From an uncultured Clostridia bacterium (GTDB lineage: Bacteria > Bacillota > Clostridia > TANB77 > CAG-508): DNA of 32,000 bases. The position numbers and the translations under genes were made by a program. Under the pieces are notes generated by a model. That model did no database searches. It had not been told where the DNA came from and saw only the letters and a program-made list of their open reading frames with translations. The DNA lies in contig CALXQB010000004.1 of the NCBI GenBank assembly GCA_944390445.1, positions 1,848 through 33,847 on the forward strand, given 5' to 3'. Of the stretch, positions 10,908 to 13,082 are shown one piece after another (position 1 is the first letter of the stretch; the number at the start of each line of letters is the position of its first letter).

Positions 10908-10936
10908 TTGACAAAGAAGAAATATTAAAGTATTAT
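10908..10936 (+). promoter_or_regulatory. Promoter of leader module A
   Basis: TTGACA, 17-nt spacer, TATTAT. The same arrangement is conserved at 12610-12638. Confidence 0.55.
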
Positions 10937-11045
10937 CTTAAATAAGAAAGAATAAGACAGTATAAAATAATTTAAGAAAAGGGGCAATTTTAATCGTCCT
11001 TACATCAGAGAAACTACTAATAGGGTAATAAAGGAGAAAATAAAA

Positions 11046-11114
11046 ATGAACAGAAGCGGAAAACGTTGGGAGAGTAACACACACACACACACACACACAC
11101 ACGATATAATTTAA
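11046..11114 (+). CDS. sORF A: MNRSGKRWESN(TH)4DII, 22 codons, double TAA stop
   Basis: AAAGGAG RBS. It is conserved in 3 copies, and the repeat-length difference between copies is a multiple of 6 nt. Confidence 0.5.
   Translation: MNRSGKRWESNTHTHTHTHDII
11077..11102. repeat. (AC)13 dinucleotide microsatellite inside sORF A
   Basis: Counted directly from the sequence. Confidence 0.95.
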
Positions 11115-11135
11115 TAAAAAAGAAAATAAATCGGA

Positions 11136-11185
11136 ACTATCCATTTCGAGTGTAATTATTATGCTCGAGATGGGTAGTCTTTTTA
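11136..11185 (+). terminator. Intrinsic terminator after sORF A
   Basis: 15-bp stem actatccatttcgag/ctcgagatgggtagt containing two U-G wobbles that pair only on the + strand, followed by cttttta. Confidence 0.7.
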
Positions 11186-11250
11186 TGTTTAATGAATAAT
11201 GAAAAATGAATAGTGAAGAATGAATAATTCGTAGTATAGTTCAATGTTCC

Positions 11251-11425
11251 GGGTCGGTCAAGACCGACCCCTACAAAAAATTATTCACTATTCATTAAAA
11301 ACATATGTAGGGGTCGGCGCCCACGCCGACCCATGCTACGAAGAAATCTCTTAAATGTATGGACGATTAAAATCGCCCGGACTTTGAAGAATTCTCTAAA
11401 TGTAGGGGCTGGTCTTGACCAGCCC
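11251..11425. repeat. REP/BIME-like cluster A: four GC-rich palindromes
   Basis: The elements are 11251-11274 (- orientation, ...cccctac), 11307-11332 (+), 11357-11378 (+, degenerate head gtat) and 11402-11425 (+). They are joined by conserved linkers acgaagaaat.tcttaaatgt. Confidence 0.7.
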
Positions 11426-11465
11426 AAGAAAAGGGAAAAAATAAAATAAACGGAGGAAAAGAAAA

Positions 11466-12422
11466 ATGGAGAAAAAACAAAAAAGAAGAAAAGAAAAAGG
11501 AATCACCCTAGTTGCATTAGTGGTAACAATCATCGTGCTAATTATCTTAGCAGGTGTTACCTTAAATATCATATTAGATCAAAATGGAATTATCAGTAAA
11601 ACCCAGCAAGCAAAAGAAGAATGGAATGAAGCAGAAATAGCAGAAAAAGAAGCAATGCTAAAAGCAGAAGCAAAGATATTGGAATTTCAAAACAATACAG
11701 AACATGAAATGTTAGAATATTATATAGATGAAGTGCCAATACCAAAGGGATTTGTCTATAAAGAAGGAACAAAAGAAACAGGACTAGTAATCATCAACAA
11801 AGAAGATGGAAACGAATTCATATGGTATCCGATGAGCGAAGAGGAAGCCGACACAATAACATCAACATTGGCAAATGGACACATGGGAATATCAGATGAA
11901 GCAAATTTAATTGCAAGTATAAAAGAATATGGAGGGACTTATGTAGCAAGATACCAAGCAGGAGCAGATGTAGAAATAACATCACTAGAACAAGCAGATG
12001 GAACTGTATATTCACAAGCAGATAAATATCCATATATACATGTATCACCAGAGAAAATAATAAGATTATCCCAAAGCATGTATCCAGAAGAAGAGACTAA
12101 TACAACAGGAGCAGTATCAACATGGTATCCAATTACTAGTAGAGACCTTTACAACAAATTTGGTGTAGGAAGTATTCCAGGAGAATTAAAAAATTTAAAT
12201 CCTGAACTTATGGGAATATATCAAAGAAACACAGAGGGTCAAGGAGAGCAAGCAGCACAAAGTGTAGTATATTATGAGGAAAGAATAAATGGATTTTTTA
12301 GAGGTGGAGCCTATTTGGGAATATCTATAGATGAATTAAAAAAACTGGAAATAAATGCACTCGGATATACAACATTTCGTCCTGTATTATATATAAAACT
12401 AGTTGAAGATGGAACAGAATAA
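11466..12422 (+). CDS. Pilin-like-N-terminus protein, paralog A (divergent FGE/SUMF1-like C-terminal region)
   Basis: N-terminus is KRRKEKG|ITLVALVVTIIVLIILAGV (class III signal-like, Ala instead of Glu at +5). It also has YVARYQAG and a C-terminal GYTTFRPVLY. RBS is ACGGAGGA. Confidence 0.8.
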   Translation: MEKKQKRRKEKGITLVALVVTIIVLIILAGVTLNIILDQNGIISKTQQAKEEWNEAEIAEKEAMLKAEAKILEFQNNTEHEMLEYYIDEVPIPKGFVYKEGTKETGLVIINKEDGNEFIWYPMSEEEADTITSTLANGHMGISDEANLIASIKEYGGTYVARYQAGADVEITSLEQADGTVYSQADKYPYIHVSPEKIIRLSQSMYPEEETNTTGAVSTWYPITSRDLYNKFGVGSIPGELKNLNPELMGIYQRNTEGQGEQAAQSVVYYEERINGFFRGGAYLGISIDELKKLEINALGYTTFRPVLYIKLVEDGTE

Positions 12423-12609
12423 GATAGCAATTGAAATGAAAAAATGATAAAACTAATTAAATGATCTGATATAAAAATTGACTAGTTTTTCCTTGTGTTT
12501 CTTAAAAGAGGGAGATGGGATATTTATCAAAAAGGGACGAGAAACAATTCTAAAAAGCAAAAAATCCATAAACCTTAACGCCCCATTGTTCATAAAATAT
12601 AAAAAGGTC

Positions 12610-12638
12610 TTGACAATGAGAAAATGTTAAAGTATTAT
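12610..12638 (+). promoter_or_regulatory. Promoter of leader module B
   Basis: TTGACA, 17-nt spacer, TATTAT. Confidence 0.55.
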
Positions 12639-12677
12639 ATTAACAAAGAAGAGAGACCAAAGGAGAAATGAAGAAAA

Positions 12678-12746
12678 ATGAACGAAAGCGGAAAACGTTG
12701 GGAGAGTAACACACACACACACACACACACACACGATATAATTTAA
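12678..12746 (+). CDS. sORF B: MNESGKRWESN(TH)4DII
   Basis: Paralog of sORF A, containing (AC)13 at 12709-12734. Confidence 0.5.
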   Translation: MNESGKRWESNTHTHTHTHDII

Positions 12747-12767
12747 TAAAAAAAGCAATCAATCGGA

Positions 12768-12816
12768 ACTATCCATTTCGAGTGTAATTATTATGCTCGA
12801 GATGGGTAGTCTTTTT
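12768..12816 (+). terminator. Intrinsic terminator after sORF B
   Basis: Same stem as in module A, followed by ctttttg. Confidence 0.7.
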
Positions 12817-12871
12817 GTGTAATTAATGAATAATGAAGAATGAATAATTCGTGGGTATAGTTCAACATTTT

Positions 12872-13042
12872 GGGTCGCCGAAGGCGGCGACCCCTACATA
12901 AAAAAATAGAGTTAACGTTGTAGGGTGTCGGCGCCCACGCCGACCCAATGCTACGAAGAAATTTCTTAAAATGTAGGGGTGATTTCAATCGCCCGAACTT
13001 CGAAGAATTCGCTAAAATGTAGGGGCTCGTCTTGACGAGCCC
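12872..13042. repeat. REP/BIME-like cluster B: four GTAG-headed palindromes
   Basis: The elements are 12872-12897 (-), 12920-12946 (+), 12973-12994 (+) and 13019-13042 (+). Confidence 0.7.
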
Positions 13043-13082
13043 AAGAAAAGGGAAAAAATAAAATAAACGGAGGAAAAGAAAA

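Follow-up and report, generated by a model that had tools for sequence, protein, structure and literature searches.

Three leader modules upstream of pilin-like genes

We analysed a 32,000-nucleotide stretch of DNA from an uncultured Clostridia bacterium (assembly GCA_944390445.1, contig CALXQB010000004.1, positions 1,848 to 33,847; hereafter, the window), which is a chromosomal stretch of a low-GC Firmicute with a GC content of approximately 31%. Three times in this window, a gene encoding a protein with a pilin-like N-terminus (gene 1, 11466–12422; gene 2, 13083–14504; gene 3, 24938–26251) is preceded by a similar leader module, in which a pure (AC)n tract lies within a short open reading frame (sORF). 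The three modules align with a mean column identity of 77%, and their core is nearly identical. Each consists, in this order, of a σ70-like promoter, a Shine-Dalgarno (SD) sequence, the sORF containing the (AC)n tract, a double TAA stop, a terminator hairpin of the + strand, an AT-rich region with elements resembling repetitive extragenic palindromes (REPs), a ribosome-binding site (RBS), and the pilin-like gene. All of the module features and genes described here are located on the + strand.

An earlier note on this DNA had called the promoters near-consensus, and the sites found agree with that description: TTGACA-17-TATTAT at 10908–10936 in module 1 and at 12610–12638 in module 2 (11 of 12 matches each), and TTGACG-17-TAAAAT, accompanied by a TG, at 24423–24451 in module 3 (10 of 12 matches). 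The good RBS, the sORF of the form MN(R/E/K)SGKRWESN(TH)nDII, and the double TAA that the same note described are present at all three modules. The sORFs encode MNRSGKRWESN(TH)4DII in module 1 (11046–11117, 22 codons), MNESGKRWESN(TH)4DII in module 2 (12678–12749, 22 codons), and MNKSGKRWESN(TH)3DII in module 3 (24542–24607, 20 codons), and each is closed by TAA TAA. Thus, a simple repeat within a short ORF that has its own SD (AAAGGAG; 11030–11036 in module 1) and ATG occurs three times in the window. The tracts were confirmed by Tandem Repeats Finder as pure (AC)13 (11077–11102), (AC)13 (12709–12734), and (AC)10 (24573–24592), and they are the only dinucleotide arrays in the 32 kb. A 13-nt box, CGTTGGGAGAGTA, directly adjoins the tract at 11064–11076, 12696–12708, and 24560–24572, respectively.

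The terminator hairpins with their T-runs were located at 11133–11185 (stem 11136–11178), 12765–12817 (stem 12768–12810), and 24623–24675 (stem 24626–24668). The 20-bp stem starts 18–21 nt past the first stop codon of the sORF, so that the intrinsic terminator proposed shortly 3' of the sORF is indeed there. The hairpin folds with −26.4 kcal/mol on the + strand (z = −7.6) versus −14.5 kcal/mol on the − strand; therefore, the claim that its G-U wobbles fit the + strand only holds. Among eight hairpin variants from the window and its relatives, 9 of 20 base pairs changed on one side only and yet remained paired through G-U, and 97.5% of the cells of the alignment were paired. On this basis, the terminator is a genuine + strand RNA element. 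The hairpin occurs a fourth time, at 26354–26406 (stem 26357–26399; three mismatches, all of which preserve pairing); this copy has no sORF before it and forms the 3' terminator of gene 3, which indicates that the hairpin also serves the cell as a regular terminator.

Downstream of the terminator, a long 5' untranslated region (UTR) extends to the vicinity of the gene. In module 1 (11186–11449) it contains inverted TAATGAA/ATTATTC arrays and three REP-like GTAGGGG palindromes (11251–11274, 11307–11332, and 11402–11425). In module 2 (12818–13066) it contains AT-rich motifs and REP-like palindromes (12872–12897, 12973–12994, and 13019–13042), and in module 3 (24676–24920) AT-rich inverted arrays (24680–24704 and 24730–24768), REP-like palindromes, and an additional ca. 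50 nt of small palindromes. The RBS ACGGAGGA is located 8 nt upstream of genes 1 and 2 and 11 nt upstream of gene 3. The AT-rich inverted motifs and GTAG palindromes were thus found in each module as the earlier note had it; the palindromes themselves, however, are not particular to the modules. Nine GTAGGGG..CCC elements were found in the window against 0.05 expected, and two of them lie outside the leaders, one after lepA (8567–8588) and one after an ORF of 163 aa (21668–21691). These locations indicate that the REPs are a genome-wide family of generic dispersed elements. Their stems show compensatory G/C swaps between copies (CTGGTC/GACCAG versus CTCGTC/GACGAG).

Consequences of tract length for the sORF

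An (AC)n tract is read as alternating Thr and His in all three frames. Since Thr-His arises automatically in every frame, the repeat in the peptide is uninformative as to selection. The tract length does determine where translation ends. In the window-type cassette (hereafter, the cassette is the unit of sORF, tract, and terminator), n = 1 mod 3 leads to ..DII TAA TAA with the stop 9 nt past the tract, and n = 2 mod 3 leads to ..TI TAA with the stop 4 nt past the tract. With n = 0 mod 3, the frame is open to a TAA at the top of the 5' arm of the hairpin, at +50 from the tract (11153–11155 in module 1). This stop is mutated away in two cassettes from relatives (L003 and L002), where the long frame runs on to +89 or +323. 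All window-type cassettes share this pattern: stops at +4 and +9 close two of the frames, and the third has its first stop at +50, +89, or +323.

The hairpin stems begin at +31 to +34 from the tract, that is, 18–27 nt past the short-frame stops. A ribosome that halts at either of these stops therefore does not extend to the stem. From the position of its stop, a ribosome in the long frame would cover the hairpin from its 5' arm through the loop into the 3' arm. In five of the six cassette types, which include types with unrelated terminators (L007, L008, L010/13/18, and L021 types), one of the frames reaches the hairpin (P = 0.04 against shuffled spacers). The three window copies (n = 13, 13, and 10) are all in short frames; the tract of module 1, with n = 1 mod 3, is predicted to specify a low or OFF state, and the window copies together are predicted to be in the low-expression state.

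Distribution of the cassette and variation of the tract in relatives

The earlier note had proposed a search of other genomes for the sORF peptide and a survey of (AC)n lengths in relatives, and both were carried out. A scan of species-representative genomes with a degenerate peptide-level pattern yielded six cassettes in two metagenome-assembled genomes (MAGs) of uncultured gut Clostridia, with n = 13, 12, 12, 11, 12, and 10. A scan of metagenomes with the 21-mer CGTTGGGAGAGTAACACACAC yielded 17 further cassettes in diverse contexts, the intact tracts of which have n = 9–15. Contigs were also retrieved by exact identity of the downstream protein, a route that is free of ascertainment by the motif. 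At one locus (the gene encoding P0056) with identical flanks and an identical 418-aa protein, n was 11, 10, 12, 10, 10, 12, 11, and 9 across eight metagenome samples. A second locus showed n = 13, 16, and 16, plus 16 with one A-to-G interruption, and a third showed n = 14, 9, 10, and 12. The lengths of 9 to 12 at the same locus in eight samples demonstrate that the tract is hypermutable and that its changes are not restricted to multiples of three. In total, intact tracts range from n = 9 to 16 and occupy all three phases, and the long frame accounts for approximately 8 of 30 tracts, as would be expected for unconstrained switching among three phases. Accordingly, the single phase that had been noted for the three copies holds within the window and is not conserved in the relatives.

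In 278 kb of sequence, comprising the loci and the window, all (AC)n tracts of at least 5 units sit in cassettes, and no other simple-sequence repeat (SSR) was found there. Nearly every gene of the GITL(V/I)ALV type with enough upstream sequence has a cassette 140–420 nt upstream. The cassettes have a constant orientation, lie immediately 5' of one gene family, and are present in several copies per genome. The cassette is specific to the pilin-like gene family. In a relative, a syntenic locus retains the promoter, the AT-rich motifs, and the REPs and lacks the sORF, the tract, and the terminator, which indicates that the cassette is an insertable control unit within the leader. No match to the box was found in the viral_contigs collection, and blastn searches of plasmid and phage collections gave no match to the cassette.

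The syntenic locus (L026/L027, 3500–4100) corresponds to that of window gene 3 (Gate transporter, gene, UDPGP, mfd). The pilin-like gene is split there, with the N-terminal 90 aa in another frame, and is a possible pseudogene. A conspecific contig (L024), on which gene 3 is 100% identical, differs in the 3' part of the leader (24854–24920 of the window versus 1–256 of L024): it lacks the ca. 50 nt of small palindromes and has an RBS region of the module 1/2 type. This difference shows that the leaders are mosaic, probably by recombination between paralogous copies. The L024 contig starts at the top of the 5' arm of the hairpin.

The downstream gene family

The products of the window genes share the N-terminal sequence ..RRKEKGITLVALVVTIIVLIILAG, in which a short basic leader ending in Gly is followed by a hydrophobic stretch of approximately 20 residues (..RRKEKG|ITLVALVVTIIVLIILAGVTL). 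It resembles a class III (prepilin) signal. At position +5 after the putative cleavage Gly, where pilins have Glu, the window genes encode Ala and the relatives encode Ala, Ser, or Val. Gene 1 encodes 318 aa with the N-terminus KGITLVALVVTIIVLIILAG and no Pfam family; gene 2 encodes 473 aa and is a paralog of gene 3 (68% identity); and gene 3 encodes 437 aa with a pilin-like N-terminus and a weakly FGE/SUMF-like C-terminus. What gene 1 has in common with genes 2 and 3 is confined to the first 60 residues or so, plus a weak central similarity.

This is a large family, for which databases contain more than 5000 relatives at E ≤ 0.001. None of the window genes matched a Pfam or NCBIfam family; the best NCBIfam profile was GspG (E = 0.16), and no N_methyl/prepilin profile matched. 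A sequence search of the PDB with the gene products gave no match, and a profile search against the PDB gave weak matches to pilin N-termini (E = 0.2–0.7) and, for the C-terminus, to SUMF2/FGE (E = 0.038). Relatives of the L008 subfamily have a precomputed match to PF03781 (FGE-sulfatase). An AlphaFold2 model was poor (predicted local distance difference test score, 58.8), and Foldseek found no match to it at E ≤ 0.001. No prepilin peptidase or assembly ATPase is encoded within the 32-kb window. These features suggest a surface or membrane-anchored protein with a pilin-like N-terminus, and the evidence goes no further than that.

The last 60 or so residues of gene 2 (14380–14504) diverge from gene 3 and include an insertion-like stretch, and the C-terminus of gene 2 may be frameshifted or decaying. 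In addition, a repeat of approximately 50 nt (CATTCCTTAAAGTYCAAAGYRATTATG..AGTG.T.AAA) is found on both sides of gene 3, at approximately 24352–24400, 26277–26320, and 26420–26465, the latter two copies bracketing the fourth hairpin.

A putative phase-variation switch through transcription attenuation

In Streptococcus gallolyticus, the pil1 and pil3 pilus loci carry GCAGA repeats in a leader ORF, with a terminator 33–39 bp past its stop (Danne et al. 2014, PMC3894217). In out-of-frame variants of the repeat, the peptide is lengthened so that it ends within or past the hairpin, and pilus transcription rises; this effect was shown genetically to require both translation and the terminator, and it is also seen in Lactococcus (PMC3894217). 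By analogy with this system, we consider it probable, at roughly 0.6, that each window-type module is a slipped-strand phase-variation switch that acts through transcription attenuation. Transcription would begin at the upstream promoter, and ribosomes would load at the strong SD of the leader sORF and then translate the (AC)n tract. The length of the tract modulo 3, fixed in the DNA and altered by replication slippage in 2-nt steps, would set the frame in which the ribosome leaves it. When n = 1 or 2 mod 3, translation would stop 18–27 nt before the hairpin, the terminator would form, and most transcripts would end there (low or OFF). When n = 0 mod 3, the ribosome would sit on the 5' arm and partly on the 3' arm, so that the terminator could not form and RNA polymerase would continue into the surface gene (ON). 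Several independently switching copies, located before paralogs with a common N-terminus and differing ectodomains, would generate a stochastic, combinatorial surface repertoire.

A number of observations weigh against this interpretation. Everything in it past the anatomy, namely the ribosome-mediated antitermination and the ON/OFF outcome, we infer from the analogy with pil1 and pil3. The open-frame statistic is modest (P = 0.04), and in the UMGS1754-like cassettes (L005, L012, L019, and L020) no frame enters the hairpin, the longest stopping 2–10 nt short of the stem, and the sORF of L012 does not even extend to the tract. The differences in n between samples represent instability, which is distinct from switching within a population. 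Contig breaks at the tract were considered as a sign of heterogeneity within samples and were rejected as ambiguous, since a multi-copy repeat would break contigs too. In the L048–L052 group, a decayed tract is fixed in a short frame, and yet more than 20 contigs carry an intact gene. Furthermore, the L008/L054 lineage has a conserved promoter-like element (TTGCAA-17-AATAAT, with a TG before it) between the cassette terminator and the gene, so that the cassette can at most modulate expression there. This TTGCAA-N17-AATAAT element (approximately 790–830 in L054; also in L043, L059, and L065) is located directly 5' of pilin-like genes whether or not a cassette is present. In the window, promoter-like matches between the terminator and the gene are weak (9 of 12) and lie within the REPs of modules 1 and 2; none was found in module 3. 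Finally, a frame switch leaves the invariant box beside the tract unexplained.

In favour of the switch are the syntenic locus that lacks only the cassette and the decayed tract of L041/L042, which has become fixed in the long frame. Decayed tracts had also been considered as a general test of the switch, on the expectation that they would be locked ON, but they do not count as strong evidence because the outcome was mixed: L041/L042 and L016 are in long frames, the tract of L014 is fused in frame, and that of L048–L052 is in a short frame.

The invariant box and a possible trans-acting factor

Every tract is adjoined by CG(T/C)TGGGAGAGTA, with AAA-N before it. The sequence of the box does not vary among 23 distinct cassette contexts. 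In 352 kb, 46 boxes were found, none of them outside a cassette, and each is followed by a tract or by the remnant of a tract; the box is retained where the tract has decayed (L041/L042 and L048–L052). Relative to these conserved nucleotides, the start of the sORF can lie in any of three frames, so that the box is read as RWESN or VGRV or a stop precedes the tract. The conservation of the box across three reading frames indicates selection on the nucleotides and not on the peptide. Within the box, an SD-like GGGAG is located 4 nt upstream of the tract. Pairing in cis of the box with the downstream leader or the gene start was not supported by RNAduplex (z approximately 0), and no common target was found in 14 cassettes.

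This conservation speaks for the most probable alternative, in which a trans-acting protein or small RNA would bind the box (AAA-N-CGTTGGGAGAGTA, as RNA or DNA) and decide termination or translation family-wide; the (AC)n would then be an unstructured platform or spacer, the length of which is neutral or serves for tuning. The identity of the box in 23 contexts and three frames, its retention beside decayed tracts, and its absence elsewhere in the 352 kb would all fit such a factor, and the UMGS1754-type cassettes and the locked short frame of the L048 type suit a pure frame switch poorly. A factor of this kind, however, leaves several constant features of the cassette unexplained: the upkeep of a long, pure, and mutable tract across many lineages, the strong SD and start codon 28–36 nt upstream in every cassette, and the early closure of two frames while the third remains open to the hairpin. 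Moreover, no complementary cis target of the box was found. We therefore give this alternative a slim, although real, chance. This alternative and the frame switch do not exclude each other.

Within the frame-switch interpretation, the box may instead provide a second, translational layer. The SD-like GGGAG could stimulate +/−2 frameshifting, in which case the P-site and A-site tRNAs (ACA for Thr and CAC for His) could re-pair perfectly on the tract after a 2-nt shift, and some of the ribosomes, in a proportion set by the tract length, would pass into the terminator-invading frame irrespective of the phase of the DNA; or the box could dock a dedicated trans-acting factor that serves as a gate for all switches of the family. 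We judge this layer, in either form, a shade less likely again than a factor that decides alone. If it were true, the cassettes would form a two-tier system of genetic phase plus translational or factor control, which has no described counterpart. Another open idea is that the box could act as a pause site for RNA polymerase that would synchronise the ribosome.

On one contig from a relative (L014, 111–848; JGI contig Ga0247608_10344301), the box and an (AC)4 are fused in frame in the N-terminal extension of a DNA methyltransferase with a DPPY motif (MNMRKENKTAESVGRVTHTS..). Evidently, the head of the cassette can be grafted directly onto a coding region.

Other explanations of the module

The cassette might alternatively be an independent small gene that is transcribed as an RNA of approximately 150 nt (a small RNA and/or a peptide of 20–25 aa), with the box as its seed and with a purely positional relationship to the surface genes. 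Its own promoter and efficient-looking terminator would suit such a gene, conservation of a short box at the nucleotide level is typical of a small RNA seed, and one lineage has a second promoter-like element 3' of the cassette. Its placement does not suit an independent gene: the cassette keeps one orientation immediately 5' of one gene family in several copies per genome, the promoter matches between the terminator and the gene in the window are weak or lacking as described above, and the syntenic locus without a cassette has the same promoter directly before the leader. A hypervariable tract would also be odd for an RNA of fixed function. On balance, this explanation is improbable.

Still less probable is a classical leader-peptide attenuator, in which a ribosome would stall at the Thr and His codons when charged tRNA is low and thereby set the read-through. 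This reading was implied by the earlier note, and its structural part, a leader ORF and an intrinsic terminator before each pilin-like gene, stands; a Thr-His attenuator kept in one phase is not supported. A translated leader ORF rich in two amino acids directly 5' of an intrinsic terminator is what such a mechanism calls for. However, the leader without the 3' arm of the hairpin folded at −7.5 kcal/mol (z = +0.36), and 122 of 200 shuffled sequences folded at least as well, which indicates that the leader lacks an antiterminator that a stalled ribosome could promote. In addition, since the tract ends 31–34 nt before the stem, a ribosome stalled in the tract would leave the terminator free to form. 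Further features speak against this reading: (AC)n yields Thr-His codons whichever frame is used, n differs between samples by steps that are not multiples of three, and the sORF starts in three frames relative to the conserved nucleotides. The downstream genes encode surface proteins, and domain searches of them gave no biosynthetic domains. No Rfam family matched the window at the gathering threshold, and a search of 10900–13090 at E up to 10 gave sub-threshold chance matches, none of them to a leader family.

A role of the tract as a promoter spacer, by which slippage would change the spacing between TTGGGA in the box (4 of 6 matches) and the perfect TATAAT directly past the tract of the window-type and UMGS1754-type cassettes, has a negligible probability and was rejected on spacing, because n = 10–13 gives 27–33 nt where 16–18 nt are needed (n = 5), other cassette types have no TATAAT there, and such a transcript would begin just before the terminator. 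Slippage that alters promoter spacing is known from hif of Haemophilus influenzae and opc of Neisseria meningitidis.

Comparison with known systems

The S. gallolyticus pili are the only experimentally shown system of this kind and the sole precedent found in the literature. The search found nothing on an (AC)n or Thr-His leader, and the earlier note likewise knew of no described leader peptide of alternating Thr and His; nor was anything found on the present gene family, including FGE-sulfatase pilin-like proteins. The cassettes resemble pil1 and pil3 in that a simple repeat lies in a short leader ORF with a terminator a few tens of nucleotides past the stop, and in that an out-of-frame change of the repeat extends the ORF into or past the hairpin, except in the UMGS1754 type. 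The number of repeats differs between isolates or samples in both systems, more than one locus is present per genome, and the genes concerned encode surface appendages or surface proteins of gut-associated Gram-positive bacteria.

On the other hand, the repeat unit is a dinucleotide here, (AC)9–16, and a pentanucleotide in S. gallolyticus, (GCAGA)13–23; one of three phases is predicted to be ON here and two are ON there; and the distance from the stop to the stem is 18–27 nt versus 33–39. The S. gallolyticus loci are sortase pilus operons, whereas the cassettes precede single genes with a pilin-like N-terminus and are separated from them by a REP-filled UTR of 250–300 nt past the terminator, in addition to carrying the invariant 13-nt box. 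The host of the cassettes is an uncultured low-GC gut member of the Clostridia, and the system is known from its sequence alone. There is no sequence similarity between the two, which are analogous and not homologous. What is new here is the dinucleotide unit with its phase arithmetic, the lineage, the many copies per genome before a paralogous family, and the invariant box.

Phase variation by SSRs inside coding regions is well known from the CTCTT repeats of Neisseria opa and the tetranucleotide repeats of lic and mod in H. influenzae. As in these genes, a hypermutable repeat near a start codon sets the frame, and the box with (AC)4 in the L014 methyltransferase is in frame. Unlike in these genes, the repeat lies outside the structural gene, in a separate ORF of 20–22 codons, and a change of frame is predicted to act on transcription termination and not to truncate a protein. 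The his, thr, and trp attenuators likewise have a translated leader ORF followed by an intrinsic terminator, and the position of the ribosome decides whether the hairpin forms, as is predicted here; the cassettes, however, have neither an antiterminator nor a cognate biosynthetic operon, and the signal would be the length of the repeat and not charged tRNA. In the cwpV-type switch of Clostridioides difficile, an invertible element makes a leader terminator in one orientation. That switch has in common with the cassettes the phase variation of a surface protein in Clostridia via an intrinsic terminator in the 5' leader, and it differs in that it operates by site-specific DNA inversion, whereas translation-coupled repeat slippage is proposed here.

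The setting of the cassettes is a large number of paralogous surface-protein genes of uncultured human-gut Clostridia. If the frame-switch interpretation is correct, the occurrence of the same logic outside S. gallolyticus would make it a recurrent solution and not a curiosity, and n mod 3 at each locus would give a predicted ON/OFF surface repertoire directly from metagenomes. The conserved box may mark a further step of control.

Other features of the window

Besides the modules, the window carries genes including lepA, an SpoU methylase gene, a class B sortase gene, a YkuD transpeptidase gene, hrcA-grpE-dnaK-dnaJ, phoH, a thioredoxin gene, and mfd. Two of these are split into overlapping ORFs, dnaJ at 18114–18797 and 18772–19332 and mfd at 27823–30753 and 30719–31255. 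The splits are frameshifts, either real or due to assembly errors, and they call for caution as to the single-base accuracy of the assembly. The class B sortase and YkuD L,D-transpeptidase genes are located at 9400–10868, directly 5' of module 1, and a link of these genes to the surface proteins is possible. The intergenic region 3' of phoH (20955–21080) contains a long, near-perfect hairpin (ttatcccactcatgaacttatattt ... aaatataagttcatgagtgggata) around a GC-rich loop, which had no Rfam match at the gathering threshold. An isolated ORF with a Bro-N domain at 21883–22242, located among housekeeping genes, may be a prophage remnant.

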